A DNA stretch of 63,133 nucleotides from a virus (Duplodnaviria > Caudoviricetes). The notes under the pieces were generated by a model that had not been told where the DNA came from, did not search any database, and saw only the letters and a program-made list of their open reading frames with translations. How positions within the stretch are numbered: position 1 is the stretch's first letter; every line of letters begins with the position of its first letter. The DNA is taken from positions 1 through 63,133 of IMG/VR virus record IMGVR_UViG_3300005534_000015; one strand, 5' to 3'. Made by a program: the position numbers and the translations under genes. Positions 1 through 47,526 of the stretch are shown in pieces.

Positions 1-255
1 GACTTCGGGAACGCGGCCGTCGCCACCGTCCGTGCGACCGCCGATCTTGTTCATGGCGATTTGGCCCTCCATGGCCCGCGCCTTGTCTTTGCCTTTCTTG
101 GGTTTTGATCCGCCTTTGCGAATGCGGCCCGAGTAGGCAATCGGTTTGGCCTTGTCGTTTGCGACGTCGATGGCTGCTTCGGAGCGTGGAGATGCGCTGA
201 AACCGACGTCGCCGGCATCATCCTGAACGTAAAGGGAATCGTATGTGTGGCCCAT
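1..255 (-). CDS. Small basic protein with T4 CTS-like leader (putative internal head protein), partial; not in the supplied ORF track
   Basis: Translated by hand: MGHTYDSLYVQDDAGDVGFSASPRSEAAIDVANDKAKPIAYSGRIRKGGSKPKKGKDK...; runs off the window edge; paralogous to 1686-1937 and 5528-5782. Confidence 0.75.
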   Translation of the reverse strand, partial: MGHTYDSLYVQDDAGDVGFSASPRSEAAIDVANDKAKPIAYSGRIRKGGSKPKKGKDKARAMEGQIAMNKIGGRTDGGDGRVPEV

Positions 256-259
256 TAGG

Positions 260-484
260 TCATCTCCGGTTGTCTAGGGCGAACTTCAGTTTGTTGGCCA
301 ATTCGTCGCGTTCGGCGGTTATCAGGCGCACAGCGTTCATTCCTGCTTCCACACAGTGGTTTGTCGCTGAAAACAGACAATTCGATGCGAGTTTGTAATC
401 TCCATCGTTTATCGCTTGGGCGGCTTCTCGAAGGGCCTGTGAAGCTCGGTAATGATATAGCTTCAACTTGTCGAGGTCAGTCAT
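260..484 (-). CDS. Hypothetical protein
   Basis: 74 aa helical ORF; ATGA overlap with the upstream gene. Confidence 0.6.
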   Translation of the reverse strand: MTDLDKLKLYHYRASQALREAAQAINDGDYKLASNCLFSATNHCVEAGMNAVRLITAERDELANKLKFALDNRR

Positions 485-693
485 CCAGTTCTCCCCGTAA
501 TCGCCCCGAACCAGTATGCTGCGGTCTCGCTGAAACTATCGGCCTGATCATCGTGACCTGCCTCCATTGCCGCATCGTGGCGCACTACTGCGGCCTCGAA
601 GAGGTGGATGGCGCTCTCGATCAGGCGGTCGATGCGGGCCTGCTCTTGTCTTTCTTTTTCTTCATCTTTCGGGACCTTGAGGCGGGTAAACAT
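481..693 (-). CDS. Hypothetical protein
   Basis: Start MFTRLK at 693 with AGGAG upstream; ends overlapping the next start. Confidence 0.55.
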   Translation of the reverse strand: MFTRLKVPKDEEKERQEQARIDRLIESAIHLFEAAVVRHDAAMEAGHDDQADSFSETAAYWFGAITGRTG

Positions 694-908
694 TGTCGTC
701 TCCTGGTAGAACAGAACGGATGGCGTCGCCGACGTCTTCCCAACCGGATCGCAGGGCTTCTTCGTTGTTTTGCTGGAGTATCTTCTCCAGACGGGATTGG
801 TGCAAGGCGCCGCCCAGATCAAGGACAGAGGCGACGCCGATCCAGAACGGATCGTCAAAACCACTCATGAGCCGGTTAAACCACCCAGATGATCGCTTCA
901 TTGCGTGT

Positions 909-1109
909 CTAACGTTCTCGTAGGACCCTCACATCGAAGTGGTAATTCGGATCCTCGTTGAACGCCGCTAACTCTGCATCATAGATGGCGTACTCGGTGG
1001 TAGGGTCGGTGGTCCATGGGATCTGAACTTCAAAGAAGGTGATGGTCCGTGTCTCTTCGCGGGTGACGACGACGCCCGGTATCTTCTCTAGTCGTTCTCG
1101 CAGTGTCAT
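909..1109 (-). CDS. Hypothetical protein
   Basis: Start MTLRERLEK at 1109 overlaps the stop of 1106-1474. Confidence 0.55.
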   Translation of the reverse strand: MTLRERLEKIPGVVVTREETRTITFFEVQIPWTTDPTTEYAIYDAELAAFNEDPNYHFDVRVLRER

Positions 1110-1474
1110 TGGATGTAACACGTTTCCATGCAAGATTCGCACCGATGTTGTGACCCCTGGTAATAGTCGCCCACACCTTCTTCGACGAGCAGGCCCTTCG
1201 CGCCGCAGTTCGGACAGAACAACTCCGTCGTCTCCCAAACAGGCTCGTAAGGGACGGTTGGTGTCTCCATCGCTTGCTGCAGCAGTTCGCTGCGGGTCAT
1301 GCCCGTTTTCTTCAACCATTCGGCGGTGATGGATCGGGAGAGAAGGCTCCAGATATCTTCGCGAGGGTGTTCGGCTGATTCGAAATGTTTGCTCGTTATA
1401 TCTTCTGAGATGGGCGCGGCACCAGGGACAAAGAAGATCGAAGGGTTTGGTTTGGTTGATTGGCTATCGTTCAT
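1106..1474 (-). CDS. Hypothetical protein with C-terminal Zn ribbon
   Basis: CPNC...CESC; start MNDSQ at 1474 in a TAATG overlap. Confidence 0.6.
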   Translation of the reverse strand: MNDSQSTKPNPSIFFVPGAAPISEDITSKHFESAEHPREDIWSLLSRSITAEWLKKTGMTRSELLQQAMETPTVPYEPVWETTELFCPNCGAKGLLVEEGVGDYYQGSQHRCESCMETCYIQ

Positions 1475-1680
1475 TAGAAGGTCACGTTCCTTATGCGGCG
1501 AGCTTCTCGCTGCTCGATAGCTAACACTTCGGCACTGGTCAGCCGTCGCCATGGATCGAGCATCTGGTCGCAAACGTCGTCCGCTTCGTCGGTGTCGCCG
1601 CGCCCAGAAGCGATCAGATCATCGAGGCGTTGCAGTAACTTTTCAAAGAGAGCAGCGTCAGGGTTCACCGATTCTGTCAT
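1474..1680 (-). CDS. Hypothetical protein
   Basis: 68 aa ORF tightly packed in the leftward operon. Confidence 0.55.
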   Translation of the reverse strand: MTESVNPDAALFEKLLQRLDDLIASGRGDTDEADDVCDQMLDPWRRLTSAEVLAIEQREARRIRNVTF

Positions 1681-1685
1681 TCTAC

Positions 1686-1937
1686 CTATCCCATCGCGCT
1701 CGGGTTGGAATACTCCGGGTCATCGGTCAGCGACCGAGGGCTTTTCGGCAGAACAGGCTTGCCGACTTTCGCTGGCTTGCTTCCGCCTTTCTTGATCTTC
1801 CCCTTATACTGAGGGGGCTTGCCTTTTGGCCCGGCCATGCCGATGGGTGTATTGTTGGTCGCGGAGATTGTCGTGTCATACTGGCCCCCGCTGCCGCTTG
1901 AGTCGATGTCTTGATACAGGTCTAAGAAGTCGCGCAT
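1686..1937 (-). CDS. Small basic protein with T4 CTS-like leader (putative internal head protein)
   Basis: MRDFLDLYQD leader; YKGKIKKGGSK motif; GGAGGGG RBS and CGGTACAATA motif upstream. Confidence 0.75.
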   Translation of the reverse strand: MRDFLDLYQDIDSSGSGGQYDTTISATNNTPIGMAGPKGKPPQYKGKIKKGGSKPAKVGKPVLPKSPRSLTDDPEYSNPSAMG

Positions 1938-1955
1938 CGTCGTACCCCTCCAGCG

Positions 1956-1965
1956 TATTGTACCG
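1956..1965 (-). promoter_or_regulatory. Phage promoter motif CGGTACAATA (-10-like)
   Basis: Same motif recurs at 6033, 8949, 23191, 42914 and 51935. Confidence 0.55.
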
Positions 1966-2028
1966 TGAAAATCGGGCTGGGTCCAATCGGTATTAGAGTG
2001 TATGCTCGGTACAAATAGCTGTGGTACA

Positions 2029-2476
2029 GAGGAGGTGCCGGGAACTTCTTGGGTGAATGGTCGTCTGAGGATCAGGACCTTACCGGTGTCCGCGGGGTCG
2101 CAGCATCGAGGTTAGACCGGCTGGCGAGGGACGGGAGGGTGTCCAAGTCGCCCTCCCTCCCTCGCCCTGGTCCGCAAGAGCCTCAGACGAGCATCAGTGG
2201 ATCCCCCGACACCCGTCCCTCCTCCTGCAGACGGATGTCAGTTTACCAGGGGATGGACGTCGGGTCAATGCTTTTGACAAACCTAGCATCAAGGCCGCGC
2301 TTGACCGGCCCTTTTTGGGCAGAGACGGTACTTGACCTACTCCTCGCCGCGGAACCAGCGGAACAGGAAGTGGTAAAGGCACCAGGTTACGGCGTTACTG
2401 ATACCCTCGAAGAAGCGGTCCACGCTCCAGAGCAACCCCGCCACGCCGCGTATCCAGAGGCGGATGAGAACGGCAT
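2029..2476. ncRNA. Putative large structured non-coding RNA, family unknown
   Basis: Gap between two leftward genes filled with nested complementary segments, e.g. TCGTCTGAGG 2061-2070 / CCTCAGACGA 2181-2190; GCGAGGGA-C-GGGAGGG / CCCTCCC-TCCCTCGC; ATCCCC / GGGGAT; CTTCTT-GGGT / ACCC-TCG-AAGAAG. Confidence 0.55.
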
Positions 2477-2479
2477 AGA

Positions 2480-2707
2480 TCATGGCTGGTCTTCGGCCAC
2501 TCCAGAGGCAACGAGGCCGACGATTGCCAGTGCCTCAGCTAGGAAAAACGCGACTTGGAATTCAGTGTCGCCTCGCTCCAACCGTTGAACGACCCCCTTT
2601 AATGATAAGTAAAAGGCTTCTCGCTGCTCCTGAAGCATCCGTTCCAGCCTTTCCGTCAGGTCAAGCACCATACTCCCTTTGGGGGTGATTGTATAACAGG
2701 GTTTCAT
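2480..2707 (-). CDS. Hypothetical protein
   Basis: 75 aa; GAGGA RBS. Confidence 0.55.
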   Translation of the reverse strand: MKPCYTITPKGSMVLDLTERLERMLQEQREAFYLSLKGVVQRLERGDTEFQVAFFLAEALAIVGLVASGVAEDQP

Positions 2708-2720
2708 TTACTTAGTCCTC

Positions 2721-3323
2721 TTAAGGGGAAGGAGTGGCTGGGTTGGTTGGCGCGGCGGCAATAACTGGCCCGGCGCCGGAAGCGACGAGGACCCAGTTAT
2801 TGGCTGGCTGCGCGTAGAGCTGGAAGAAGGCGGGGCCAGAGCCGACGACGGCGGCGGGGACGATAATGGTGACAGCCGTGTTGGTCCAGCTCTTCACGAC
2901 GGCGACGACCCCATTCACCTGAACCCGGTTGCCGCCGACTGCAGGAGTGCCAAAGCCGGCCCCTACGATGACCAGGGTGTCGCCGGGAGACACCTGCGCG
3001 AGGGGTTGGCCCGCAGGCGTCTGGAAGCCCGTGATTGAGGTCGTGGGGGCGCTTGGTGGGGTTACTGGCGGCGTGACCGGAGGAGTTGGGGTAGGAGTGG
3101 GAAGCGGCGTGACGGCCGGCGACGTCCCTGACACTTGAACGTAGGTGAGGGTCCAGGTGTCGGTTCGGGTCTGGTTCCACTTGACCCCGTTGGCGTCGGT
3201 GAAGAGAACGGTGGTCGTCGTCGTGCCTTGCTGGTTGCAGGCCCCGGCAGGGGTGGACTGTGCGAACGAATGGGCGGGAAACAACAACGATACGGTGAGA
3301 AGGCAGATAAGAAGAAGCTTCAT
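2721..3323 (-). CDS. Secreted protein: Sec signal peptide, Pro/Thr linker, IPT/TIG (Ig-like) domain
   Basis: MKLLLICLLTVSLLFPAHSFA|Q signal; PTPTPTPPVTPP linker; PGDTLVIVGAGFG...VKSWTNTAVTIIVP is TIG-like. Confidence 0.7.
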   Translation of the reverse strand: MKLLLICLLTVSLLFPAHSFAQSTPAGACNQQGTTTTTVLFTDANGVKWNQTRTDTWTLTYVQVSGTSPAVTPLPTPTPTPPVTPPVTPPSAPTTSITGFQTPAGQPLAQVSPGDTLVIVGAGFGTPAVGGNRVQVNGVVAVVKSWTNTAVTIIVPAAVVGSGPAFFQLYAQPANNWVLVASGAGPVIAAAPTNPATPSP

Positions 3324-3763
3324 TGGTTTCCTTTGGCATCACATCTAATCGGATACACTTGCCAGAGACAGGCATGACAACCCGGTCGTCCGTCGGCGTT
3401 CGCGGGTCCGAGGGTTCCGAACTTGCCGCACTTCGGGCATGGAGTGCCGCGCAGATCGTGCTCGGTCCCGTCCTTGAGCAGCCAGAGGGGCTGTGGGCGT
3501 ACCGAGACGACGGATGCGGTCTTGTTTGGATCGGCGGGGATATCGACCTTCTGGGTCGGGATGCCGCCTAAATTCGAAAACACAAGAGAAGAGGGATTGG
3601 GTGGTTCAGTGATCGCGGGCAATTGAGCGATCTTGCCTCGCATTTCCGACACAATGGTTCTGCAGTCGGAACATACGTTGAAGCGATATCCTCCAAAGTG
3701 CGTCTTTCCGCAAGCATAAACATTGGGCCGCTCACAGAGTTCGCAGAAAACGGCAGAAATCAT
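3320..3763 (-). CDS. Zn-finger hypothetical protein
   Basis: Four CxxC pairs. Confidence 0.6.
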   Translation of the reverse strand: MISAVFCELCERPNVYACGKTHFGGYRFNVCSDCRTIVSEMRGKIAQLPAITEPPNPSSLVFSNLGGIPTQKVDIPADPNKTASVVSVRPQPLWLLKDGTEHDLRGTPCPKCGKFGTLGPANADGRPGCHACLWQVYPIRCDAKGNQ

Positions 3764-4131
3764 CAGGGCTCCTCCATTGTGAAGAGGGATTTAATCCAGG
3801 GTTGCGTGATGGGGCGACGAGCAAATAGAACGTAACCGCGCGCCGGGCGATGTCTCCGCAGGGTTTCCATCGATGCACCCGTTGTGTACACATCATCAAT
3901 GATGAGTAATCCGTCCTCATCTCTTCCGGTGGCCCCTGAATGCAGTATATCCGCCAGTATAATGCCGCCCTTCGGGACGCCTTCTACGAAACCATAAGGT
4001 TCGGTTCGGCGCTTGATCTCAACAGCGAGGGCACACAAATCGTAGAACGACAGGTAATCACAATCAATCTTGAAGCAGGAGATTTCGCCCGAATGAAGTT
4101 TGAAACTACCGGTGTTGAATAATCCCATCAT
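3763..4131 (-). CDS. Short orotate-phosphoribosyltransferase-like (type I PRTase) protein
   Basis: FKLHSGEISCFKIDC, VEGVPKGG, and PRPP-binding loop LLIIDDVYTTGASM. Confidence 0.75.
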   Translation of the reverse strand: MMGLFNTGSFKLHSGEISCFKIDCDYLSFYDLCALAVEIKRRTEPYGFVEGVPKGGIILADILHSGATGRDEDGLLIIDDVYTTGASMETLRRHRPARGYVLFARRPITQPWIKSLFTMEEP

Positions 4132-4418
4132 TTTCCCTTTGGGGGTCGTCCCCGGCGCGGCTTGGTTGGCGCTTCATCGCTGCAGCCATCGCCGATAACC
4201 ACGACCTGTCTAATCGGCGTTGGCAACAATCGTTTGAATGCCATGCAGGAGATGTTGTTGATGCCATTGGCATTGACCATCTCCCAGCCTTCTCGGCCCA
4301 ACTCGTTGAGGATGGCTGACAATTCATATTCGCTTCCAAGATTGGGTGCGCCGCCATCGGCCATCCATTGTCCATGATAGCTGGAGTATCGGACGATGAG
4401 GTATTCCCATTTTTGCAA
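4128..4418 (-). CDS. DUF4177-like protein with C-terminal AT-hook-like motif
   Basis: KWEYLIV...LNELGREGWEMV...FKR; ends PRRGRPPKGK. Confidence 0.65.
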   Translation of the reverse strand: MQKWEYLIVRYSSYHGQWMADGGAPNLGSEYELSAILNELGREGWEMVNANGINNISCMAFKRLLPTPIRQVVVIGDGCSDEAPTKPRRGRPPKGK

Positions 4419-4440
4419 GGGTAATTCTCCGTAAACGCGG

Positions 4441-4467
4441 AAATGACCGGCAGGGAGCCGGTCATTT
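4441..4467. terminator. Hairpin, probable intrinsic terminator
   Basis: AAATGACCGGC-AGGGA-GCCGGTCATTT, perfect 11 bp stem in an intergenic gap. Confidence 0.6.
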
Positions 4468-4500
4468 GCAGTTTACCCGAGGGTGGAGGCGTTCGTCAAA

Positions 4501-4716
4501 CTATGTGGTGGCTTGCGTGAGCAGTCGACCGGGTGGAATATTGTCGACGCGCTCGTTCTCCAGGACTTGATAGCTGTCAATGACGCTGGAGTGGGTTTCA
4601 CAGCTCTGGTTCCACTGGCGCTGCTGCTCTTCGAGGGCAGTGCGGTCGGGATGGACGATGCGGCCGACCTTGCGGGAACCGCGATACATGATCAGGACGA
4701 ATTCTGTCTTCTTCAT
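4501..4716 (-). CDS. Hypothetical protein
   Basis: 71 aa; ATGA-coupled to the endonuclease gene. Confidence 0.55.
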   Translation of the reverse strand: MKKTEFVLIMYRGSRKVGRIVHPDRTALEEQQRQWNQSCETHSSVIDSYQVLENERVDNIPPGRLLTQATT

Positions 4717-5531
4717 GGGGTATATATTTCTTTCTCTTCGTTATCGACCCACTTCCAAGTGCGTCGGTTAACAACATTGCTTATTGCCCGCTGGTGTACT
4801 CTCATTTCTGCTGCGAATTGTCGCTGGGATACTATTCCGATAGGATATATTTCTCTGATTAAACGCACTTGTCCACGGGTAAGTTTGGAACAATGTTGTT
4901 GTTCTCCCTTGATAATTGCCCTTTTGGAACGTAGTTCAGGGGATGCCCATGCTGCTTTCGAAGCTTCGGATAGTTTTCTTCTGGTTTCCGGGGAAGACAG
5001 ACCTGCTTTAGCTGCCAACGACATTTTAGCTCTTGTTTCGGGAGATGATTTGGCTTTCTTTAGGATGTCGGACATTTTTGTCCTGTACTCGGTTGACGAT
5101 TGTACCGACGTAGATACTAACGACATCTTTTCTTTGAAAGCCTGGGTTTTGTATACGCAATCAGAGGACTCCAAATATCTCTTTCTTGCTTGTGATAGTT
5201 TGTTTCTGAGTTCCAAATTCGGATTGGCTATACCTTCGCCACCGTCAGTGGCGTTGGTTAATGGCGCTCCGCAGGCGCGGTAAAGCGCAATCCATTCTGA
5301 TTCACACTGATCGGTCCCAGAACCCAGAATCACTAGGGTCGGCTCAATTCCGTCGGCAAGTAGGCTTCGGATCCATTTTGCTTTGTAACTTTTTCCTTTC
5401 GTTTTGGCGTCTTGAAGGTGAGCTTTATATCGCGCACTTTCTGTTTTAGTAGTCCTGCCTATATAACGAACGGACAGGACTTCATCGGATATGCGCGGAT
5501 CAGCAAGAGCATAATGATTCCACAGCGTCAT
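4713..5531 (-). mobile_element. Free-standing GIY-YIG homing endonuclease with NUMOD3-like repeats and C-terminal HTH
   Basis: HYAL...RYIGRT, R and E catalytic positions, LTNATDGGEG, repeated SPETRAKMS / SPETRRKLS; AT-richer than its flanks. Confidence 0.85.
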
Positions 5532-5782
5532 TTGTAAGAGTCGAATCCTGGATGTGCCTTGTGGGCATCAGCGGGGTCCATGCGGTCGTCTGGACCGGCG
5601 GTTGTCGTTCCTTCCTTCGTCTTCTTGGTGCCGCCCTTGCCGATCTTATCTTTGAAGGGGGCCTTCAAGTTCTGTTTGGGCTTCTTCGGCTTACCGACCT
5701 TATCGTCCCCAGCAGGGAACTTGTCGAGCGTTTCCTTGCTCATCCCCTCATCCTGGGTGTATAGATCGAGGTACGTTGCCAT
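5528..5782 (-). CDS. Small basic protein with T4 CTS-like leader (putative internal head protein)
   Basis: True start MATYLDLYTQD at 5782 (AGGAG RBS); FKDKIGKGGTK motif. Confidence 0.75.
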   Translation of the reverse strand: MATYLDLYTQDEGMSKETLDKFPAGDDKVGKPKKPKQNLKAPFKDKIGKGGTKKTKEGTTTAGPDDRMDPADAHKAHPGFDSYK

Positions 5783-5783
5783 T

Positions 5784-6017
5784 TTAGGTCTCCTGTTTGG
5801 GCGGCGTTCCGGCCATCGACAGAGGATGGGACACGCCGTCGACGGATGGCTTACCGCTGGGTGACGGCGAAGTGCGAGTAAGGCGCTTCTTCTTTTTGCG
5901 CGAGGCAGCCGACGAGACGCTGGCCCGCTCTGCAGGTGACATCCCCAGGCCGCCATTCCCCACCGTAGTTGCATCGGCTGCGCCTGCGTCCTGATCGTAA
6001 AGTTCGAGGTAGTTCAT
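5784..6017 (-). CDS. Small basic protein with T4 CTS-like leader (putative internal head protein)
   Basis: MNYLELYDQD leader; RKKKKR patch; AAGGAGGAGG RBS and GGGTACCATAA motif upstream. Confidence 0.75.
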   Translation of the reverse strand: MNYLELYDQDAGAADATTVGNGGLGMSPAERASVSSAASRKKKKRLTRTSPSPSGKPSVDGVSHPLSMAGTPPKQET

Positions 6018-6045
6018 GGGTTGCCTCCTCCTTTATGGTACCCGA

Positions 6046-9770: not shown

Positions 9771-10571
9771 TTACTTCTTTGTAGCACGCTTGGCTTTTTG
9801 TTCCAGATATATTGCGTTGCAGCAGGTGATGCAGCGCGAGTTGGGAACGACTTTTCCATATTTTGTAGTGACGGGATAGAATAGTTCATTGAGTTTAATC
9901 TTATGGCATCGCCCGCATTCTCGTTTCTTTTCGCCCTTGAAGAGTTTTTGATATCTTCGCTTGCAATCTGACCGTTGATGCATTTCTTCGGAGTCGCACT
10001 CCTTACATTTCGGTCGGTTGGGCTCCGGTCCTGGCTTTCCAGAGGGATGGAATTCGGAGCGAGACTTGATCTTGTGACAACCTGAGCATTCCTTTTCAGT
10101 TGCGGACTTGAAGTATCTTTTCTGGGAATGAGTGGTGAGAGCTTTTTCAGGATCGATGCCTTTTCGAATTCTTCTGATCAGTTGTTGGTGGCTGATGTTG
10201 AACCGTGGATCTTTTACCCAATCCTGAACACATTTGGTTTCACCAAACGCGGTTACAATGATGTTGTTTCGTTTGTTGCGACTTTGTTCTCGCCGCGTAG
10301 ACCAGCGACAGTTCTCGGGGCAGTAATTCTTATCGTTGTCGATCCTGTCAATGGTCAGGCTGGGGTCGTAACCGTGGGTGACCGCCCAAAGGCGAAATGC
10401 CTCGAAATTATCGCGCCATTCGTCGCACATGACGATGCCTCGCGCGCCGTAGTTCTTGTAGGGACGGTGCGTCGGGTAGTAGCAGCGCATGTGGATGAAG
10501 GTCCAGATGCTTCGCAGGCGAAGCGCCTCGTCACTGTCAACCGGCGGCGAGGAGATATCGGCACGGTTCAT
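9771..10571 (-). mobile_element. Free-standing HNH-type homing endonuclease with two C-terminal C4 Zn fingers
   Basis: YKNYGARGIVMCDEW...LTIDRIDNDKNYCPENCRWST; CxxC pairs; antisense to the virion genes. Confidence 0.8.
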
Positions 10572-10729: not shown

Positions 10730-12532
10730 ATGATGGGGGCGCCTTTCCAACCCTTCCCAGACCCAGGAAAGAAACGAGGGGTAATATCAAAGCTTGGGAG
10801 CAAGATTCTCAAAGTTTTGCTTCGCGGAGATGTTACGACTTATCCTCAGCTTTCGGGGAAAAATACCTCGGAATTAGGTGCAGGCGAGGCGGCATTCAGT
10901 TCATTTTCCTCGACCTACTGGAAAATTGGCTGGGATAGGAGGGCGGTCTATTCAGATTTGCGCGAGATGGATTCATCAGATCCGCTCATCTCAACGGCCC
11001 TTGACATCATTGCAGATTGTGCTACGGGCTACGAAGATACCTCAGTAGATAGCTTCGAGTGGCTCATGGACCGCAACGATGACCAGGCCAAAGCCGCCAT
11101 GGTCATCTTGAACGAGATGAAGCTGCGCCTGGAGTTGGGCGCCGAGTGCTGGCAGATCGTGCGCGGTTTCGTGCGCAACGGGGAGGAGTTCCGCGAGGTC
11201 GTCTGGGATGAGAGCGGCATCGCTCGCCGGCTGAAGCACCTGCCTTCCTATCAGATTTCCCCGATGTTGGATGGCTTTGGCAACAAACAGCCGGGCTATC
11301 AGCAGCGGCTCGACGGGGCGCAGTACGGGAAGCCGATTGATTTCCCCGAGTGGGGCATGATCTCCTTCGTCTACGGGGCGCGGCGCGGCTGGCAGGGGAC
11401 CGGGCTGATGATGCCGGCCCGGCGCACCTGGAAGCGCCTCGTCAAGATGGAAGACGGCATGGCGCTGGCCCGTCTCATTCGCGCCTACGACAAGTACCTT
11501 CACAAGGTGCCCGTCAAGCCGGAATGGGACCTGGACCGCAACATTCGCGCTATCACCGAACACAAGCGGCAGATGACGAAGCGGTACGGGCTCGACGAGA
11601 ACAACCAACTGTTCACTCGCGAGCGGCCGTTTCAGGTGGAGACGGACATTTATCTTCCCGACGACGGCTCAGGCAAGGGTGGTGTCGAGCTGCTGTCCGC
11701 TCAGAACCAGCAGTTGATGAACGTGGATGACGTCCTCTATCATCAGGCGCTGCTGATGGCCCGTCTCAAGGTACCCAGCAAATATCTGAACCTCGTGCGC
11801 CGCAGTGGGGCGCTGACGGATGCGGGCCTCTCGGCCGAGGACATTCAGTTCGCGCGCACCCTGCGGCAGGTGCAGGCGGTGCTGCGCACCGGCCTCCTGA
11901 AGCTGGCCCATTACCAGCTCGCGTTCCAGGGTTGGGACTCAGACGAGTTGGGTGTCGGCCTGAACCTCCCCAAAGTCTCGACGGACGACCAGTATCAGGA
12001 CGCGAAGGTGCTGTTCACGATGGCGCAGGCGGCGGACCTGTTTGCGCAGGTGTTGGGCGGTCTCCCGCCCGAGCTGGTCGCGACGATGTTCATGAAACTC
12101 AAGAGTGACCAGCAAGAGGTCTTGATGGAGTGGGTCAAGGAGAACGAAGAAGAGCAGGAGGAGCTGCGGCGGCAGATGGCCATGGCCGGGAAGCTCGTGC
12201 CCGAGTTCGCCGCCGGGGCCGGCGGAACGGGAACGCCGAGCCGCCGCGGCGGAGACGGGCGCTTCCGCGTGAATGTGAACGGCAAGCTGTCGAGCGGTAA
12301 GGGTGGCAACACGGACGACGCCGGTGAGGCAGGTACGGACAGCGGGCCGGAGGACCAGGGAGTCCCGGCGGGGCTGCTGGTGAGTACGCTGACGGATCTC
12401 CAGATGTTGGTCCAAAGCGAACTGGAGAACCAGGGTCAAAGCTTCCGCATCGGCCGCGCCGAACGGCTGCACCGGACGAGAGAAGCATTGTTCGAGCGGA
12501 TTTCCGAGCAGAGAAACGGTTTCCAACTCTAG
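10730..12532 (+). CDS. Portal protein, T4 gp20-like
   Basis: REMDSSDPLISTALDIIAD, ARRTWKRLVKMEDGMALARLIRA, DIYLP, LKVPSKYL and EDIQFARTLRQVQ match gp20-family blocks. Confidence 0.85.
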   Translation: MMGAPFQPFPDPGKKRGVISKLGSKILKVLLRGDVTTYPQLSGKNTSELGAGEAAFSSFSSTYWKIGWDRRAVYSDLREMDSSDPLISTALDIIADCATGYEDTSVDSFEWLMDRNDDQAKAAMVILNEMKLRLELGAECWQIVRGFVRNGEEFREVVWDESGIARRLKHLPSYQISPMLDGFGNKQPGYQQRLDGAQYGKPIDFPEWGMISFVYGARRGWQGTGLMMPARRTWKRLVKMEDGMALARLIRAYDKYLHKVPVKPEWDLDRNIRAITEHKRQMTKRYGLDENNQLFTRERPFQVETDIYLPDDGSGKGGVELLSAQNQQLMNVDDVLYHQALLMARLKVPSKYLNLVRRSGALTDAGLSAEDIQFARTLRQVQAVLRTGLLKLAHYQLAFQGWDSDELGVGLNLPKVSTDDQYQDAKVLFTMAQAADLFAQVLGGLPPELVATMFMKLKSDQQEVLMEWVKENEEEQEELRRQMAMAGKLVPEFAAGAGGTGTPSRRGGDGRFRVNVNGKLSSGKGGNTDDAGEAGTDSGPEDQGVPAGLLVSTLTDLQMLVQSELENQGQSFRIGRAERLHRTREALFERISEQRNGFQL

Positions 12533-14434: not shown

Positions 14435-15583
14435 ATGGGCTCCCTCGTCAAGAACCGCATCTATCGCGCGTCGACCGGGCTGGTCAAGGTCGCGCCGCAT
14501 GGCTATTCCGCCGGCCCGCAGTCGCTGCCGTGGGGCGGCGCCAACGGTTATCGCGAGTTCGTGACGGTGGGGCACGCGTGGCGGATGCAGAAGAGCGGAA
14601 TTATCACCCAAGTCAAGGTGCAGGGGCCATCCAGTTTAACGGGGCAGGGATTCTATTTGCGAGTCTGGCGGCGCCGGGGCGGGGCGGGCAGCCTCTACGA
14701 CGGGATCTCGGCTTCCCCCGGAGCGAATCTGATTGGGCAGATCACCGCGGGCGCGGTCAGCACCGTGACGCTTTCGCCGGGCCTGCCGGCGGCCGAGGGC
14801 GACTACCTCGGTTACCGGCTCGACGGGAATGCGCCTGATCCCGGTCCCTGGACAGCGGCGGGCAGCGTGCCCAGCACCACCACGTACTTCACGAACAACG
14901 TTACTCCCGGTGCCATCGGGTTTGCGTGGGAGGCGCAGTTTGCGCTCGCGGGCGACACGCTGCCCATTGAGGTTTACATGAGCGCGCCGACGGCAGTGAT
15001 CATCGGGGACTCGATTGTGAGTGGCTTTCCGAACCACGTCTCGTTTTTGGAGACGACGGAGACGACGAACCTGGAAGTCCCGATCAGCACCTATCTGATG
15101 CCGACGCTGCCGAGCGTCCTGAACGCGGGCATCAGCGGGAATCTGACCAGCGATATCGTGGCCCGCTTCACGACCGATTGTCTGGCGTACAATCCCCGGT
15201 ATGCCATCATCGAGGGCGGCACGAACGACATCGCGACCGGCGTCTCCTCGGCAACCATTCTCGCGAACTGGACCACCCTGCTGACGGCGACCCAGGCGGC
15301 AGGGGTGCAGGCTGTCATCCTCCTGATCCTGCCGCGCACGACGCTGACCAATGGGCAGTCGCAGCAGCGGGACAGCATCAACGCCTCCCTGACGGCCCTC
15401 GCCGCGACGTATGGAGCCATCGTGGTCAATGCCGACAGCGCGGTCGGTCTCTTCCGGGCCGGCGGCGACGCGGGAAACCACTGGGATATCCAAGCGGCCT
15501 ACGGTTATGGAGACGGCACGCATTACAATCAGGCCGGTCATACGAAAATAGCGCAAACGATTCTGACTGCGATGCGCGGCTAA
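14435..15583 (+). CDS. SGNH/GDSL esterase-domain protein (probably virion-associated)
   Basis: Blocks IIGDSI, NAGISG, GGTNDI, DGTHYNQAGH. Confidence 0.8.
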   Translation: MGSLVKNRIYRASTGLVKVAPHGYSAGPQSLPWGGANGYREFVTVGHAWRMQKSGIITQVKVQGPSSLTGQGFYLRVWRRRGGAGSLYDGISASPGANLIGQITAGAVSTVTLSPGLPAAEGDYLGYRLDGNAPDPGPWTAAGSVPSTTTYFTNNVTPGAIGFAWEAQFALAGDTLPIEVYMSAPTAVIIGDSIVSGFPNHVSFLETTETTNLEVPISTYLMPTLPSVLNAGISGNLTSDIVARFTTDCLAYNPRYAIIEGGTNDIATGVSSATILANWTTLLTATQAAGVQAVILLILPRTTLTNGQSQQRDSINASLTALAATYGAIVVNADSAVGLFRAGGDAGNHWDIQAAYGYGDGTHYNQAGHTKIAQTILTAMRG

Positions 15584-21642: not shown

Positions 21643-22023
21643 ATGAGCGATTACAGCGATTTTTCGCTTTCGTTTACCCGCGGCGACACGCATCTGTTCC
21701 GCTTCACCGTGGTCGACAAATTGACGGGGGTCGTGCAAAACATCACGACGTGGCAGAAGTTCTGGGTGACGGGGAAGTTGCACCTGTCCGACAGCGATGC
21801 CAACGCGGTGTTCGAATTGACCCTCGGCAGCGGCATCGCCCTGATCGACCCGTCGCATGGCCTGGCCGAGGTCACCATCTCGCCGACCAACACCGCCTCC
21901 CTCGATTTTCGGAAGTATACCCTGTTTGGCGACATTCAGGGGAAAGATACCACGGGTAATATCTGGACGCTCGCCAAGGGGACGTTCGTCATTACCTCTG
22001 ATGTGACGCAGGCGACGAGTTAG
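21643..22023 (+). CDS. BppU-like beta-sandwich structural protein
   Basis: TRGDT..F.FTV...G.AEVTISP..T..L....Y..DIQ......TL.KG.F....DVT pattern. Confidence 0.6.
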   Translation: MSDYSDFSLSFTRGDTHLFRFTVVDKLTGVVQNITTWQKFWVTGKLHLSDSDANAVFELTLGSGIALIDPSHGLAEVTISPTNTASLDFRKYTLFGDIQGKDTTGNIWTLAKGTFVITSDVTQATS

Positions 22024-23190: not shown

Positions 23191-23234
23191 GGGTACAATA
23201 ATCGCAGGGACTCTGAATCCCTGCGATTTTTATT
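23191..23234 (+). promoter_or_regulatory. Promoter motif GGGTACAATAA overlapping a terminator hairpin
   Basis: AATCGCAGGGA-CTCTGAA-TCCCTGCGATT followed by TTTATT. Confidence 0.6.
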
Positions 23235-23255
23235 GCCTTTTACGGGAGCGAATCA

Positions 23256-23834
23256 ATGGGTGCGGCGTTGGAGTGGAGCTTAAACCTCGTGAAGCCCGAT
23301 GCCGTCCGGCGCGGGCTGGTGGGCCGTATCATCTCCCGTTTTGAGGACAAAGGCTTGCGCTTGGTCGGGATGAAACTGGTCTGGCCGTCCCGCGCGATGA
23401 TCGAAGCGAGCTATACCGATAACGCCGAGGAAGAGTGGTTCCCGGCGCTGCTCGATTATATGACGAGCGGCCCGGTGGTCGCGATGGTGTGGGAAGGCCC
23501 GAATGCGAACGCGGCGGCGCGCCAAATCATCGGGAAGAAAGACCCGATGAAATCGGACGCGGGCTCTATCCGGGCCGATTACAACATCGAAATGGTCAAA
23601 ACGGTCGTTCACGGGTCGCGCACGCCGGAGGAAGCGGAAGCCGAAATCGGCATCTGGTTCTTCGGGCAGGGGCCAAAACCGATCTGGGACTGCATCCTGG
23701 GCACCGAAGCGGACAATCCGGATACCGGGGGTGACGGCGCGGACGACGACACCGAGACAAGTAACTCAAAGGCGCCCGTTATGCCGGGGAAGGCGATCCA
23801 CGCGATTGACCCCGGTAAGGAAGCGGGAAGCTGA
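23256..23834 (+). CDS. ndk: Nucleoside diphosphate kinase with acidic C-terminal extension
   Basis: LVKPDAVRRGLVGRIISRFEDKGL, YMTSGPVVAMVWEG, GSIRADY, catalytic VHGS, AEAEIGIWF. Confidence 0.92.
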   Translation: MGAALEWSLNLVKPDAVRRGLVGRIISRFEDKGLRLVGMKLVWPSRAMIEASYTDNAEEEWFPALLDYMTSGPVVAMVWEGPNANAAARQIIGKKDPMKSDAGSIRADYNIEMVKTVVHGSRTPEEAEAEIGIWFFGQGPKPIWDCILGTEADNPDTGGDGADDDTETSNSKAPVMPGKAIHAIDPGKEAGS

Positions 23835-26800
23835 TGCCGTACGCCAGCGTGAAGCAGCTTCCGGCCGCGGTAAAACGCCTTCCGGGGCACGCAAAGCGCA
23901 TCTTCCGCGCCGCCTTCAACTCGGCCTATAAGCAGCATTCGGGTGACGAAACGACGGCGTTCAAGATCGGGTGGTCCGCTGTAAAGAAGCAGTACCGCAA
24001 GCAGGGAGACCGCTGGGTGGCCCGGCAGCAGGACGCGCAAGGAGACAACGAGATGAAGCGGCTCTGGGCCGATTTGAGCACCGTTTACAAGAGTTACCTG
24101 GACCAGGCGCCGATGGGCGACCTGACCAACGTCAAGGACGCGCTGGAGCTGATCGAAGGGCTGAACCAGGCGGCGGAGCCGGAGATGGTGGCCCTGCGGC
24201 AGCTCGAAGAGACCTGTGTCCCCGCCATCGGCTTCGATCTGGAGCAGGACTATAACTACAACCGGTATAAGGAGAGCGGCCTCAACAACAGCGAGACGCA
24301 TCACAACTCCTACCCCGGCAGCCTGCAGCATCAGATTCGCTGTGTCTGTCTGGCCGCGCACGCGGACGAAGAGGTTTCCGAGTACCTGGGTGATTACGGG
24401 TTCATTCTCGCCGTTTATCCCAATTACATTATCACCTGCGCCGCCGACGATTACGAGGCTCAATCGGCCGACTACTGGCAAGTCGACTACACCTTCAACA
24501 AGAACACGTTCGCCGTCACGTTCGGTGACGCGAAGCAGGTCGATGTCGGTGTGGTCGTGGTCCCTAAAGGAACGATGCCGCAGGAAACTCCGGAGAAGGA
24601 AGCGGCGGAGAACGGGGACGGCGCGGATGACGACATGCAGGATCAGGACGCCGGCCAGAATTTCAAGACCGAGGGCGGCCAGAAGTTTTCAAAAGGCGCT
24701 TACCTGATCGTGCCGGACGCTGAGAAGCCTTCTACCTGGAAAATCCGTATCGAGGAGACGCCCGGCAAAGTCACCGTGCCGCAGTTGGGCCGCGCCTACG
24801 CGGCCCTCACCAAAGGGTTCCGCGGCAACAAGGTGCAGGCGTCCTCGGGCGACAAGAGCGCGGCCCTGGCGGCGCTGAAGGCCAAATACAAGGCGATGGG
24901 CGCCGATTGGCCCGGCAGCGAGAAGCAGGAAGCCGACGACACGCCCGATTGGGTGCTGCAGGGGCTGGACCCGCCGGGCGGCGACGAGACACTCGTCCAA
25001 TCGCAAACCTGCCTGCTGCAGGTGAAAGAGCTGGACGAGGAGTCTGGCATCCTGAAGGTCTCGGGGATCGCGACCACCGGCAACGTCGTCAACGCGAAGA
25101 ACCAGGTTTACCCGACGCAGGTGTGGCAGGACAACATGCCGCGGCTGACCCGGATGATCGAGCAGGGCAAACTGGTCGGCGAGATCCAGCACCCGGCGGA
25201 TGGGAAGCCGACGCTGGACCGGACGGTGATGAAGTATACGAAGCTCGAACTCGCGGGCGACGAACTCAAATTTGAGGCAGATATTCTTCCGACCGACCCC
25301 CACGGGAAGAATTTGCAGGTCCTCATTCAGAATGGCGTTTCGGTCGATATTTCCAGCCGGGGAGCCGGGAGTATGAAGGTGGGCGACTGGAACGGAACGC
25401 CAGGGGTCAGCATCGTGCAGCGGGGTTTCCGCAACGATGCGTTCGACGCAGTGATCTCTGGCGCAAGTCCGGGGTCAACCATTACCGGCTGGCAATTGCA
25501 GTCAGCGGACAATCAAACACCGGAGGATACGGAGGAAGAGATGGAACTGAAGGAAGTTGTTGAAAAGCTCGCAGCTTCGGTGGCGGCGCTGGCTGCGGGT
25601 CAGGAGAAGATCACCGCTGATTTGAAACAGGCGAAGGACACCGAGATCACGAAGGTCGAGGCCGTGAAGCCGGAAGAGAAGCCGGTGGAGCAGGGTCTGA
25701 CGACCGTGCATCCGGAGATCGAGCGGGCCTCGCAGATGGCGGCTCTGATGGAGCAGTCGCTCGTGCGCGGCCGGGTCGAGAGCATGGTCGAAGAGACCAA
25801 AGCTAAGGGTGAGTGGGCACCGGCGTTCATCAACGCCTACCGCAAGCAGTTGACCAATGCCAACTGCAAGACGCTCGCCGAGCTGGAGCAGACGAACGAG
25901 CGGGTGACGAAGCTGATCGCCGACATGGTGCAGGACGCGCCGAAGTTCCCCGGCAAGGGCTTCAGCGTGCAGAAGGACGTGGGCGAGCGGGGGCTGCAGA
26001 CGCCGCGCGAGGTGATCGAGGCGCTGGTCGCCGACCTCCCCGACGATCTGCCGGGAATGGACTCGGGGATGAAGCACTTCATCCAGCAGGACGAGAACGG
26101 TGAGCCCGTCGTCCCGAACCACCTGATGACCCCGCGCCGGCAGATGCGGAAGGTCCTGACGAACATGGCGAAGTTCCGCACCGCCGGTTTCGACGGCCCG
26201 GCGGCCATTCAAGGTCTGATGCTGCTGTCGCAGGGTCACGATCCGAGTTTTGTCGCGGAGCAGTTCCTGGACCAGTCCATTCCCTCGGGCGTGACGGCGG
26301 TCGGCAACTCGGGCGCCCCGTCTTCCGCGATCTTCATCTTCCCGCTGGTGCGGCGCGTCTATCCGCAGTTGATTGCGACCGAAGTGGCTTCGGTGCAGCC
26401 GATGGACCGGCCCGATGGGAAGATTTTCTACCTGGACGCGTATCGCCAGTCGCCGGGCACTGACTCGGTGGACATGGGTGGCAATACGGTCTCGGGCGAG
26501 ATGCGGATCGACCGGTCGGACTCGTTCTCCTCGTCCTACGCCAATAACCCCGGCGAGTTGAACACGGCGCAGCTCATCCAGCTTCGCCTGTCGAACATTT
26601 CGGTCACGGCAGACAACAAGAAGCTTTACGCCTCGTGGAGCATTGAAGAGCTGCAGGACCTCCGGGCTTACCACGGTCTCGACGCGAGCCTGGAGCTGGT
26701 CGGGTCGCTCGCCCGCGAGATCGCGCTGGAGTGGAACCAGATCGTGCTGCAGGAGATGCTGAACGGCGCGACGGCCGGTAACGAGAACTTCGGCACGACC

Positions 26801-27295
26801 GCTCCTTCGGGCTATACGCAGAAGGAGTGGGACGAGTATATTTCTCGCTACCTGGACAAGGCATCGAACGACATCTTCAAGAAGCGTAACGGCGATATGA
26901 CCCACGTGATCGCTGGCCCGGACGCGTGGCTGAAGCTGTCGGCGACGTTCCGCACGGGCACGGACCCGCGCAGCGGCCCGAACCCGGAGCAGTTCGCGGG
27001 CCTGACCCTGACCCCGTTCATGATGGGGACCGCGCCGGGGGTCAAGACGTATAAGACCTCGTTCTGGGCGGGGACGAACACGAACAAGATTCTGGTGCTG
27101 CGGCGCGGGCAGGACTGGTCGGATACGCCGTACGTTTGGGCACCGTATCTCGACTACGTTTCGCCCGTGCTGACGCTGCCGGATACTTTCAACCAGAAAC
27201 AAGGAATTATGTCACGTGTAGCACATCAGGTCGTCGTTGGCGACGCCATGGCTACTGTTTCTATCAACAGCGGTCAGACCGGAGTTACCCTCTAA
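23834..27295 (+). CDS. Head polyprotein: ChaB domain + linker domains + T4 gp21-like prohead protease + scaffold + T4 gp23-like major capsid protein
   Basis: ChaB LPGHAKRIFRAAFNSAY...AFKIGWSAVKKQY; protease NQVYP, GEIQHP, ISSRGAGS; capsid FPLVRRVYPQLIATEVASVQPMDRPDGKIFYL, KLYASWSIEELQDLRAYHGLDA, YVWAPY. Confidence 0.9.
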   Translation: MPYASVKQLPAAVKRLPGHAKRIFRAAFNSAYKQHSGDETTAFKIGWSAVKKQYRKQGDRWVARQQDAQGDNEMKRLWADLSTVYKSYLDQAPMGDLTNVKDALELIEGLNQAAEPEMVALRQLEETCVPAIGFDLEQDYNYNRYKESGLNNSETHHNSYPGSLQHQIRCVCLAAHADEEVSEYLGDYGFILAVYPNYIITCAADDYEAQSADYWQVDYTFNKNTFAVTFGDAKQVDVGVVVVPKGTMPQETPEKEAAENGDGADDDMQDQDAGQNFKTEGGQKFSKGAYLIVPDAEKPSTWKIRIEETPGKVTVPQLGRAYAALTKGFRGNKVQASSGDKSAALAALKAKYKAMGADWPGSEKQEADDTPDWVLQGLDPPGGDETLVQSQTCLLQVKELDEESGILKVSGIATTGNVVNAKNQVYPTQVWQDNMPRLTRMIEQGKLVGEIQHPADGKPTLDRTVMKYTKLELAGDELKFEADILPTDPHGKNLQVLIQNGVSVDISSRGAGSMKVGDWNGTPGVSIVQRGFRNDAFDAVISGASPGSTITGWQLQSADNQTPEDTEEEMELKEVVEKLAASVAALAAGQEKITADLKQAKDTEITKVEAVKPEEKPVEQGLTTVHPEIERASQMAALMEQSLVRGRVESMVEETKAKGEWAPAFINAYRKQLTNANCKTLAELEQTNERVTKLIADMVQDAPKFPGKGFSVQKDVGERGLQTPREVIEALVADLPDDLPGMDSGMKHFIQQDENGEPVVPNHLMTPRRQMRKVLTNMAKFRTAGFDGPAAIQGLMLLSQGHDPSFVAEQFLDQSIPSGVTAVGNSGAPSSAIFIFPLVRRVYPQLIATEVASVQPMDRPDGKIFYLDAYRQSPGTDSVDMGGNTVSGEMRIDRSDSFSSSYANNPGELNTAQLIQLRLSNISVTADNKKLYASWSIEELQDLRAYHGLDASLELVGSLAREIALEWNQIVLQEMLNGATAGNENFGTTAPSGYTQKEWDEYISRYLDKASNDIFKKRNGDMTHVIAGPDAWLKLSATFRTGTDPRSGPNPEQFAGLTLTPFMMGTAPGVKTYKTSFWAGTNTNKILVLRRGQDWSDTPYVWAPYLDYVSPVLTLPDTFNQKQGIMSRVAHQVVVGDAMATVSINSGQTGVTL

Positions 27296-27564: not shown

Positions 27565-28036
27565 GCTTCAGCCTTTCCTGAACCCGTTCCATCACAATCG
27601 GAAGGTGCTTGCGCGGGAAGCGGATTGAGACGCTGAACACGATACTCGCTGGACCGGGACGCGTAATGGCAACGGAATCACCGTCGTCATCGCTGTCCAT
27701 GTCTAAATCATCATGCGGGTGAATGCTGTAGATCCAATCCGATTTCAGGAGGCGGTCTTCTTCTTTCCGGTTGAATGGACGCCAGCAGCGGACGACGTGT
27801 TGATAAAAACTGTCATGGTCATCTTCGTACGGATTGGCGACGATATTGAGAAAGTTCTCGGCGTCCATAGCAGACAGAAACTCTATCCAGATGAACCCTT
27901 TCGGGACGTTGTTCTCGCATGAGTTGCAAGTGCCAATGTCGAGTTTCCAGAGAGACAGGATCAGGTCGGCGATTCCTTTATCGACGTCGGCGGCGTTGTC
28001 GCCGAATTCAATGTAACGGGTCTTGTGGGTGGTCAT
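27539..28036 (-). CDS. Hypothetical protein co-oriented with the HNH gene
   Basis: VDKGIADLILSLWKLDIGTCNSCE motif; AAGGAG RBS; ATGA overlap. Confidence 0.65.
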   Translation of the reverse strand: MTTHKTRYIEFGDNAADVDKGIADLILSLWKLDIGTCNSCENNVPKGFIWIEFLSAMDAENFLNIVANPYEDDHDSFYQHVVRCWRPFNRKEEDRLLKSDWIYSIHPHDDLDMDSDDDGDSVAITRPGPASIVFSVSIRFPRKHLPIVMERVQERLKLSVWCIAD

Positions 28037-28821
28037 TTGCTTACTCCTTTGTAGCCTTTGATGTCGCGTAGATCATCAACGCTGGTGTTTGGAAACGCTT
28101 TGGCATTGTGATTTAAGACGATTTTGCAGAGCGCGACGAACTGTCGGGGAGACATCGTATATTTCATCATGTTGACCAGTTGGCAACAGAGCACGACGTT
28201 TCCTTTCAGATAGCTTGTCGAGTGGTCAATTCGGTCCAGGCTGATTGAGAAGTGGCCCCGAGTCGTTGTCATAGGAAGTCCGGTGTAGTAACAAAGTCCT
28301 TTTTGTTTTTCTAGTAGTGACACTAAAAACTCGATGTCGAGGTCGTTATGAAGCATTGGGTTCTTCTTCGAGAATCTCGTGTTCCTCGACCTGTGGAGAA
28401 GCATCATCAGGTAGGCTCTTGGATTCGTAGTAATTCGCTCTTCTGCCGCCTTGTACCAGCAGATGGAGCATGTTGGTTTCCACTCTCTACTCATCGGATC
28501 AACCTGATAGATAAATTCTTCTGGTGGTAAAAGCTCGTCGCAGCCGTTACAGTGAAAGGTACCGCTTCCTGTATCTGGGCACGTTTTATAGTTGTGCCCC
28601 AGACCACCGCAGATTCTGCAGGCGTGTGCTTTTTCAGGGAAACACACGTAGCAAAGTGTAAACGTATTTGGTTGATACCTTTCGAAGCAACTATCATGCA
28701 TCTCGTAGTCGCATCCAGTGCATACATGCATGTTGTCGGGGTCTACCGGACATTTAGTTTTATTGTGACCCAACTTGCCGCAGTATCCGCAGCGTCCGAG
28801 TGATCCTTTAGGGCGTCCCAT
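28033..28821 (-). mobile_element. HNH endonuclease with two CCHC Zn-knuckle + C4 finger units
   Basis: CGYCGKLGHNKTKC, CRICGGLGHNYKTC; QKGLCYYTG...ISLDRIDHSTSYLKGNVVLCCQLVNMMK. Confidence 0.8.
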
Positions 28822-29668: not shown

Positions 29669-30379
29669 CTATGACGCGTTGTTTTCGTGTATGATTCTGC
29701 ACAGAGTGAGGAATTGTTCGTCGTCAAGATCCTGTTTCATCTGGTTACAACGCCAACAACAGAGGACTACGTTTTCTGCAACATAGCCTTTGAGCGAATC
29801 CTTTCGGTCAATACTTATAGCCCAATCACCACAGTCGGTAGTCATTTCAATTCCTGAATAGTGACAGATCCATTGTTGGCGCTCTAGTAATTGAATGAGA
29901 AAATCAGGGTCGATGGCTGTTGGTAGATTTCGTTTGTCCATCGCCTTCTGTCCCGACTTTAGCATACGGCCAAACAACCAGTTCAAATCCTTGCGTTTTT
30001 CATCTCTGTTCCAAGTGCTGCATGTGCGACAATAACTGAGGGGATTACCGCTTTTCCTCAGCTTGTAATTCACTAATGGTAAGCGAAATCGACAGCGCGC
30101 GCACCAGTAAAGTCCGTCATCGGGCATTGGGCATGCGTTAATACGGTGTCCGACTTGACCACATCGATGGCAGCAGCGTCCGCGAAGTTCTTGGCAAACA
30201 CAGCAAATATCGCCATAACGACAGTTTCTGGGATCTTCATAGGTATAGAATCTGAATTCGGATACGCGGCGCGTTATACCACACTTTAAGCACGTTTTGT
30301 CGCGTAGAGGGCCGTTGGGGCAATTGCGTCGATAATGACCCTGTTGACCACAATCAGCACACCGAACGATACGAGGCAT
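29669..30379 (-). mobile_element. HNH endonuclease with two CCHC Zn-knuckle + C4 finger units (paralogue of 28033-28821)
   Basis: CADCGQQGHYRRNC, CHRCGQVGHRINAC; QQWICHYSG...ISIDRKDSLKGYVAENVVLCCWRCNQMK. Confidence 0.8.
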
Positions 30380-41885: not shown

Positions 41886-41887
41886 GA

Positions 41888-42913: not shown

Positions 42914-42924
42914 CGGTACAATAA
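42914..42924 (+). promoter_or_regulatory. Phage promoter motif CGGTACAATAA, probably driving a leaderless transcript
   Basis: TACAAT lies 6 nt before the ATG at 42929. Confidence 0.6.
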
Positions 42925-47515: not shown

Positions 47516-47526
47516 GGAGCCAACCG

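Follow-up and report, generated by a model that had tools for sequence, protein, structure and literature searches.

Among described systems, the internal proteins of bacteriophage T4 (IPI, IPII and IPIII) come closest to the products of four small-protein genes, here termed g1 to g4, in a 63,133-bp stretch of DNA that makes up the entire IMG/VR virus record IMGVR_UViG_3300005534_000015 and is referred to below as the window; it is a linear fragment, approximately 58% complete, from an uncultured phage. T4-type internal proteins have been characterized as a diverse set with only the leader in common, one of which, IPI*, is a dedicated nuclease inhibitor (PMC3012670). In the T4 record the leader reads MKTYQEFIAE/A in IPII and IPIII and MKTFKEFTSTTTPVSTITE/A in IPI (the slash separates residue P1 from residue P1'), and the experiments of Mullaney and Black, as summarized in a review, assigned targeting to leader residues 4 and 7 and processing to residues 8 and 10 (PMC9026906). 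The products of g1 to g4 resemble the T4 proteins in being small and in having only an N-terminal leader in common (10-19 amino acids (aa) in T4; 8-11 aa here), and in both systems this leader presents an aromatic residue at position 4, a hydrophobic residue at position 7 and a hydrophobic-x-P1 site at positions 8-10. They differ in that P1 is Gln rather than Glu, with mostly Asp at P1'. The explanation that we favor, with a confidence that is about evenly balanced, is that g1 to g4 encode head-packaged internal proteins that are clipped after Gln and act as DNA-bound polycations.

The prohead proteases of T4, phiKZ, 201phi2-1 and SPN3US all cut after Glu, the recognition motifs being L/I-x-E, S/A/G-x-E and A-x-E (PMC9026906, PMC5694885), and the T4 protease has a His, Ser and Asp triad (PMC5694885). 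A full-text literature search for a prohead protease that cuts after Gln found none. In phiKZ-like giant phages such as SPN3US and 201phi2-1, head-internal proteins carry N-terminal propeptides that are removed by the prohead protease, and the inner-body or ejection paralogues have identical N-termini followed by a diverged remainder (PMC5694885). These inner-body proteins are large, with propeptides that often exceed 100 residues and are cut after Glu, whereas the proteins considered here have fewer than 90 aa and leaders of 8-11 aa.

All four genes are present where the initial annotation had placed them, on the minus strand, and each encodes a small, basic and disordered protein whose N-terminus reads as it had been given: MGHTYDSLYVQ/D, MRDFLDLYQ/D, MATYLDLYTQ/D and MNYLELYDQ/D, respectively. 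The first, g1, occupies positions 1-255 (85 aa visible; leader at 223-255), with its 3' end lying beyond the window start, and is considered nearly complete because its orthologue P0074 has 85 aa. It is the last gene of an operon that begins with g2 (1686-1937; 83 aa; leader at 1911-1937), while a second operon consists of g4 (5784-6017; 77 aa; leader at 5991-6017) followed by g3 (5528-5782; 84 aa; leader at 5753-5782). The longest open reading frame (ORF) of g3 starts at 5974 and overlaps g4; the start was placed at 5782 because AGGAG lies 8 nucleotides (nt) upstream and three orthologues likewise begin at the leader motif. A purine-rich, Shine-Dalgarno-like run precedes the start of each of the four genes, and their GC content is higher at third codon positions (0.68-0.73) than at second positions (0.41-0.58), as in the long genes of the window. 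The motif (Y/F)xx(R/K)IxKGG(S/T)K, which had been noticed in three of the four proteins, is indeed found in the central part of three (YSGRIRKGGSK, YKGKIKKGGSK and FKDKIGKGGTK); in g4, an RKKKKR patch takes the place of KGG(S/T)K.

The leaders of g1 to g4 follow the pattern M..(Y/F)x(D/E/S)LY..Q/D. When a loose regular expression for this pattern was run against all six frames of the 63 kb, it matched six times: four matches are the N-termini of g1 to g4, and the other two are a short frame that stops three codons later and an internal LYQE of the DNA polymerase. Across an alignment of 14 family members, the leader has a length of 8-11 aa throughout, and the first Gln after LY is preceded by a hydrophobic P3 residue in every sequence (Tyr in eight, Leu in five and Ile in one), even as the spacing between LY and Gln varies (LYQ, with Leu at P3; LYxQ, with Tyr; LYDIDQ, with Ile; and LYDLEQ, with Leu). 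P1 is Gln in 14 of 14 leaders, so that none conforms to the L/I-x-Glu site of gp21, and P1' is Asp in ten, Ser in two, and Glu and Gln in one each. Placed in the T4 register, the family shows Tyr4 in more than 90% of members, Leu7, Tyr or Leu at position 8 and Gln10, and at the sequence level Tyr or Phe at position 4 is nearly invariant. At positions 4, 7, 8 and 10, the four that are functional in the T4 capsid-targeting sequence, these leaders thus match it, and the register-for-register correspondence of MATYLDLYTQ with MKTYQEFIAE holds against the T4 record. In a BLOSUM62 comparison of the T4 leader with 662 ATG-started frames of the window, g3 and g1 ranked first and second (score 12; mean -4.8, standard deviation 5.0).

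The window also encodes head genes of the gp20, gp21 and gp23 types, a further likeness to T4. A T4 gp20-type portal gene (10730-12532, plus strand) matches Pfam Portal_T4 (PF07230) with 66.9 bits and has tblastn matches to gp20-type portals; used as a single query, the portal protein found no relative in IMG/VR. Farther downstream, one ORF (23834-27295, plus strand) encodes a 1153-aa polyprotein that combines a ChaB domain (residues 9-63, followed by an unassigned conserved region), an S77 or gp21-type protease (approximately 397-545), a scaffold (approximately 557-800) and a gp23-type major capsid protein (approximately 815-1153). The protease matches PF03420 (Peptidase_S77) with 33.9 bits against a cut-off of 27, the capsid part matches PF07068 (Gp23) with 112 bits, and all four assignments, including Portal_T4 and ChaB, lie above the curated Pfam cut-offs. 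T4-like cyanophages supply the nearest tblastn matches to the protease and capsid parts, in their gp21 and gp23, with identities of 25-32%. Public data contain 68 fused homologues of the polyprotein, whose contigs reach about 120 kb, and an alignment covered 62 homologous polyproteins; a literature search for a protease-scaffold-capsid fusion of this kind returned nothing relevant.

In the alignment of 62 polyproteins, the catalytic residues His453, Ser507 and Asp538 are invariant. T4 gp21 matches the protease profile of this clade with an E-value of 1e-22, its H85, S140 and D168 falling on H453, S507 and D538, and the 62-sequence profile reaches PDB entry 5jbl_A with an E-value of 8.8e-15; a phmmer query limited to the protease domain failed to retrieve T4 gp21 from the PDB. 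The phage therefore possesses a distant T4-type head module, in which, unlike in T4, a single chain joins the capsid protein to scaffold and protease. In its Pfam family and its aligned, invariant His/Ser/Asp triad, the enzyme resembles the S77 proteases T4 gp21, phiKZ gp175 and SPN3US gp245, from which it differs in being one domain of a 1153-aa polyprotein. It differs as well at the sites themselves: the characterized S77 proteases all cut after Glu (PMC9026906, PMC5694885), whereas the conserved borders here carry Gln.

Since a fusion of this kind has to be split between its domains, conservation at the domain borders was examined. Four putative sites stand out. VLQ376/G (nt 24959-24961, plus strand) lies just before the protease, with Gln 90% conserved among the 62 sequences, Leu, Val or Ile at P3 and Gly or Ser at P1', and QLQ556/S (nt 25499-25501, plus strand) lies just after it, with Gln 100% conserved, a variable P3 and Ser at P1' in 53 of 62. 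Two more precede the capsid core: LSQ800/G (nt 26231-26233, plus strand; Gln 97% conserved, Leu, Met or Phe at P3, Gly at P1' in 60 of 60) and LDQ814/S (nt 26273-26275, plus strand; Gln 95% conserved, Leu or Met at P3, Ser, Ala or Thr at P1'). Outside the folded cores, conserved Gln columns occur only at domain borders. The sole conserved Glu in a linker, E726, has Pro, Val or Gly at P3, and there is consequently no conserved L/I-x-Glu at any border. Within the scaffold region, hydrophobic-x-Gln is 1.87-fold more frequent than in shuffled sequences and hydrophobic-x-Glu 1.02-fold, compared with 1.14 and 0.68, respectively, in the mature capsid domain; a scaffold rich in hydrophobic-x-Gln parallels T4 gp22, which is studded with gp21 sites. 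Judging from these patterns, the clade protease appears to recognize hydrophobic-x-Gln and to cut behind the Gln, in contrast to that of T4, which cuts after Glu in L/I-x-Glu, and the polyprotein is likely to cleave itself on both sides of its catalytic domain. The small-protein leaders show this hydrophobic-x-Gln pattern as well.

Two of the Gln sites, Q814 and Q556, seem to lie where T4 has Glu sites. The T4 gp23 sequence reads SFLTE65/AEIGG at 33 residues ahead of a shared VRR core, the solved mature chain comprises 456 of 521 residues, and a review gives 65 as the number of residues removed (PMC9958956). In the window capsid protein, QFLDQ814/SIPSG is found 25 residues ahead of the same core; a BLASTP comparison of the T4 gp23 N-terminus with the window aligned only the VRR-QPM core. 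For Q556, the counterpart is KEITE187/SQT in T4 gp21, a candidate cut site by motif, which follows the aligned protease domain directly, at the place where the clade has its invariant Q/S; ITE187 conforms to L/I-x-E.

The small proteins themselves form a real and conserved family. A profile of the four, searched against 1.84 billion representative proteins, gave ten matches, of which nine are small homologues (73-85 aa) and one is a spurious FN3-repeat protein; a word-index protein search with g2 returned a single homologue, P0001. Each window paralogue clusters with its own orthologues in the 14-sequence alignment, resulting in four subtypes: g1 with P0073 and P0074, g2 with P0001 (87% identity), P0070 and a syntenic orthologue on L054, g3 with P0075, P0076 and P0079, and g4 with P0072, P0077 and P0078. 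Identity between the subtypes is 15-27%, with little in common beyond the leader, and the grouping of each paralogue with its own orthologues indicates that the four types are old and maintained. An alignment of g1 and g2 matched two short metagenome contigs, one of them from the same phage. L054, a 2.6-kb metagenome contig, preserves the arrangement of genes between g2 and g1. At positions 2266-2648 of that contig, an additional leader (MSHPYDDLYQDAAGDGG) is cut short by a stop; an inserted gene of 73 aa comes next, and then a full g1 orthologue that has a leader of its own. This arrangement looks like the insertion of a gene at the leader with duplication of the latter.

Beyond these relatives, the searches were negative within their scopes: none of g1 to g4 belongs to a family in PHROGs or Pfam, the g1/g2 alignment found no relative in IMG/VR or among 185,579 prokaryote species genomes, and a tblastn search of 50,697 phage records with g3, up to an E-value of 10, had no match, which also means that no sequence similarity to the mature chains of T4 IPI-III was detected. 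Six related viral records were searched with hmmsearch on six-frame translations, the window serving as a positive control in which four of four members were recovered. They comprise G001 (the IMG/VR record behind L004; 79% complete, polyprotein 57% identical), G002 to G005 (complete, 34-47% identical) and G006, a 36% fragment that is uninformative. None of the six gave a significant family match; another profile search, of 10 related viral records, likewise returned nothing, although an empty answer from it is uninformative. In G001, the region 47308-50505 (minus strand) contains a cluster of at least six small ORFs, disordered and with C-terminal basic patches, whose N-termini are diverse and acidic-aromatic (MEEFDF..., MEEFELG..., MPLDDFEL..., MFEWPSFEDLYQD... 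and MEYPDYTNLYQS...) and whose leaders contain DLYQ/D, NLYQ/S, NLSQ/D, VLDQ/D, CLQ/Q and YAAQ/D. The G001 cluster speaks for co-occurrence of such leaders with the polyprotein; that no member was found in G002 to G005 speaks against close coupling.

Once the leader is set aside, the chains are uniform in composition. All 14 mature chains are basic, with net charges of +4 to +7 and isoelectric points of 9.3-10.9, and all consist of disorder-promoting residues to 81-88%. The ESM Atlas model of g3 has a predicted local distance difference test (pLDDT) value of 0.24, in keeping with the earlier description of disordered basic chains behind the leader, and the ESM Atlas offers no usable neighbor for g3 (best score 0.83, against a lead level of 0.9). 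Few further hydrophobic-x-Gln sites follow the leader. T4 internal proteins are folded, whereas those described here are disordered polycations. An analogy is offered by the adenovirus core proteins pVII and pX/mu, which condense DNA, are basic and are made as precursors that the viral protease processes within the capsid; neither the virus lineage nor the protease family is related, and the comparison extends no further.

A promoter-like motif, GGTACMATA, connects both small-gene operons with the capsid operon. It occurs five times exactly in the window against 0.19 expected, a count that none of 100 shuffles reached, although the excess disappears when one mismatch is allowed (11 found, 7.7 expected). 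All five copies lie in intergenic gaps and face the next gene. Two are -10-like elements on the minus strand, one (GGTACAATA, 1956-1964) located 18 nt before the g2 start and paired, in a consensus scan, with a -35-like TGGACC 17 nt upstream, and the other (GGTACCATA, 6034-6042) located 16 nt before the g4 start, at the head of the g4-g3 operon. A third, on the plus strand (GGTACAATA, 23192-23200), precedes the NDK gene, which in turn precedes the capsid polyprotein. The initial annotation had described this motif as the promoter of the capsid and tail genes; this holds for the NDK-capsid operon, while the remaining two copies, at 42915-42923 and 51936-51944 (plus strand), stand before genes of unknown function (42929-43300 and 51971-52279). 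L054 has GCTACAATA at the same place as the g2 element, and the only exact GGTACMATA of G001 is situated just upstream of its cluster of small ORFs. Directly after GGTACAATA at the NDK-capsid operon, a perfect hairpin (ATCGCAGGGA...TCCCTGCGAT) followed by TTTTTAT (23201-23240, plus strand) forms a putative terminator-like structure downstream of the promoter-like element. A sigma-like protein is encoded at 59174-59785.

Taken together, these features are consistent with a mechanism in which the leader of 8-11 residues would act like the T4 capsid-targeting sequence. The aromatic residue at position 4 and Leu7 would bind the protein to the scaffolding core, here within the fused polyprotein, during prohead assembly, and the phage's own S77 (gp21-type) protease would then remove the leader after Gln. 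Once released, the polycations of 63-75 aa would most probably remain on the DNA in the head, serving as its counter-ions or condensing it, and would exit along with it. Of the proposal in the initial annotation that a T4-style leader is cut after Gln by a gp21-like protease, the S77 protease with its invariant triad, the conserved Gln at the borders and the in-register leader are directly observed; from them we infer packaging, cleavage and its Gln specificity, leader removal and a DNA-bound role, as well as late expression. As in T4, whose ip genes have their place among accessory genes rather than in the head cluster, g1 to g4 are located away from the head genes.

Several observations weigh against this explanation. 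With z about 3.3, the resemblance to the T4 leader is modest, and an unrelated folded protein (21643-22023) attains 11 compared with 12 in the same ranking, which makes that score weak by itself. Asp predominates at P1' of the leaders (10 of 14), as opposed to Gly, Ser, Ala or Thr at the polyprotein sites, where Asp appears at only three Q814 sites. In a MAFFT alignment, T4 E65 falls eight columns from Q814 in an indel-rich stretch and shares no column with it, so that their equivalence rests on place and local likeness. Complete genomes G002 to G005 keep the Gln sites of the polyprotein, and yet neither profile search nor motif scan found a family member in them, and a de novo comparison of N-terminal 12-mers across G001 to G005 revealed neither a member in G002 to G005 nor another leader family; the small proteins are hence not an obligatory partner of the protease. 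Co-occurrence of family members with the polyprotein is otherwise indicated indirectly, by the longest contigs of P0077 and P0078 (28,895 and 26,785 bp), which equal in size those of polyproteins P0004 and P0005. Finally, the core of the promoter-like motif, TACAAT, is an ordinary sigma-70-like -10 hexamer, so that late expression together with the capsid gene does not follow from the motif by itself. A complex prediction for polyprotein residues 377-815 with g3 gave a score of 0.00, but was run without controls and counts neither way.

The main alternative, which we regard as fairly unlikely, is that the proteins are not packaged and that their N-terminal peptide is a short linear motif that serves takeover or regulation by binding a host or phage protein in the infected cell, candidates being the sliding clamp, RNA polymerase and a nucleoid protein. 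The location of the genes in a minus-strand arm of small accessory genes and homing endonucleases would suit such proteins, although T4 ip genes likewise sit among accessory genes; a sigma-70-like -10 element, with a -35-like hexamer before g2, would fit early expression, and four complete relatives have the same protease and lack the family. The xLDLY segment loosely resembles the bacterial clamp-binding pentapeptide, whose consensus begins with Gln as opposed to the near-invariant Tyr of the family. A binding motif of this kind would nevertheless leave unexplained why hydrophobic-x-Gln always follows at variable spacing and why the same motif marks the borders of the polyprotein, and it fits poorly with a position that is always at the extreme N-terminus.

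Two other alternatives accept packaging and are each improbable. According to one, the proteins would be packaged and injected, each being a specific anti-defense effector in the manner of IPI* acting against GmrSD, with no general counter-ion role. The diversity of T4-type internal proteins, the four diverged paralogues with little in common beyond the leader, and the truncated extra leader beside an inserted gene on L054, which suggests turnover at the locus, would agree with this. The members are, however, of low complexity and predicted to be disordered, in contrast to the compact fold of IPI*; within each subtype, relatives show conservation rather than hypervariability, and no Pfam or PHROG signal is seen. 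The injected, IPI-like effector envisaged at the outset has therefore gained no support, and a folded anti-restriction protein of that type is unlikely. According to the other alternative, the proteins would serve assembly only, entering the prohead with the scaffold to size or nucleate the core before being degraded and expelled ahead of DNA packaging. This would operate by the same leader and protease logic as packaging of internal proteins, and it has a precedent in the T4 core proteins gp22, gp67 and gp68, which are cut to small peptides (PMC9958956). The scarcity of hydrophobic-x-Gln past the leader argues against such degradation, and strongly basic mature parts suit DNA binding more than the building of a scaffold. 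As for the notion that g1 to g4 are not genes and that their N-termini are alike by chance or through a repeated DNA element, short ORFs, missing family matches and low-complexity composition might suggest it, but the nine protein-level homologues with orthologues for each subtype, the synteny on L054, the codon-position GC contrast and the four ribosome-binding sites already contradict it, and we consider it almost certainly wrong.

A wider and more tentative picture can also be drawn, which we hold to be less likely than not. A clade of uncultured phages with genomes of roughly 100 kb may have fused its T4-type protease, scaffold and capsid protein and switched the P1 preference of its S77 protease from Glu to Gln, with domain junctions, scaffold sites and cargo leaders co-evolving, and in one subclade the cargo may consist of protamine-like disordered polycations, a new kind of phage head content. 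Three features would set this system apart, namely its Gln site, the fusion into a polyprotein and a cargo that is protamine-like. Were this true, the head-loading code of T4, composed of a leader and a protease site, would be portable and re-tunable, and a single coordinated P1 change running through capsid precursor, scaffold and cargo leaders would constitute a natural experiment on the co-evolution of a protease with its substrates. It would also provide a second, orthogonal pair of tag and protease for loading foreign proteins into phage heads. Predicted on this basis are new N-termini at G377, S557, G801 and S815 of the polyprotein and, for g1 to g4, at the residue that follows the Gln of the leader.

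Other genes of the window include one for a DUF4177 protein with an AT-hook-like KPRRGRPPKGK tail (4128-4418, minus strand), situated between the two small-protein loci, and one for a GDSL lipase/acylhydrolase domain protein (14435-15583, plus strand) within the structural block between the portal and capsid genes. Six homing or HNH-type endonuclease genes are found within the 63 kb (4713-5531, 9771-10571, 28033-28821, 29669-30379, 40084-40554 and 43297-44421), several of them opposed to the direction of their neighbors. Two regions, 41232-42910 and 53005-55314, contain sugar-nucleotide genes for a cupin, a cytidylyltransferase-like protein and a PfkB kinase, along with genes for a family-9 heptosyltransferase-like protein and two methyltransferases, which together may modify the virion or the DNA.

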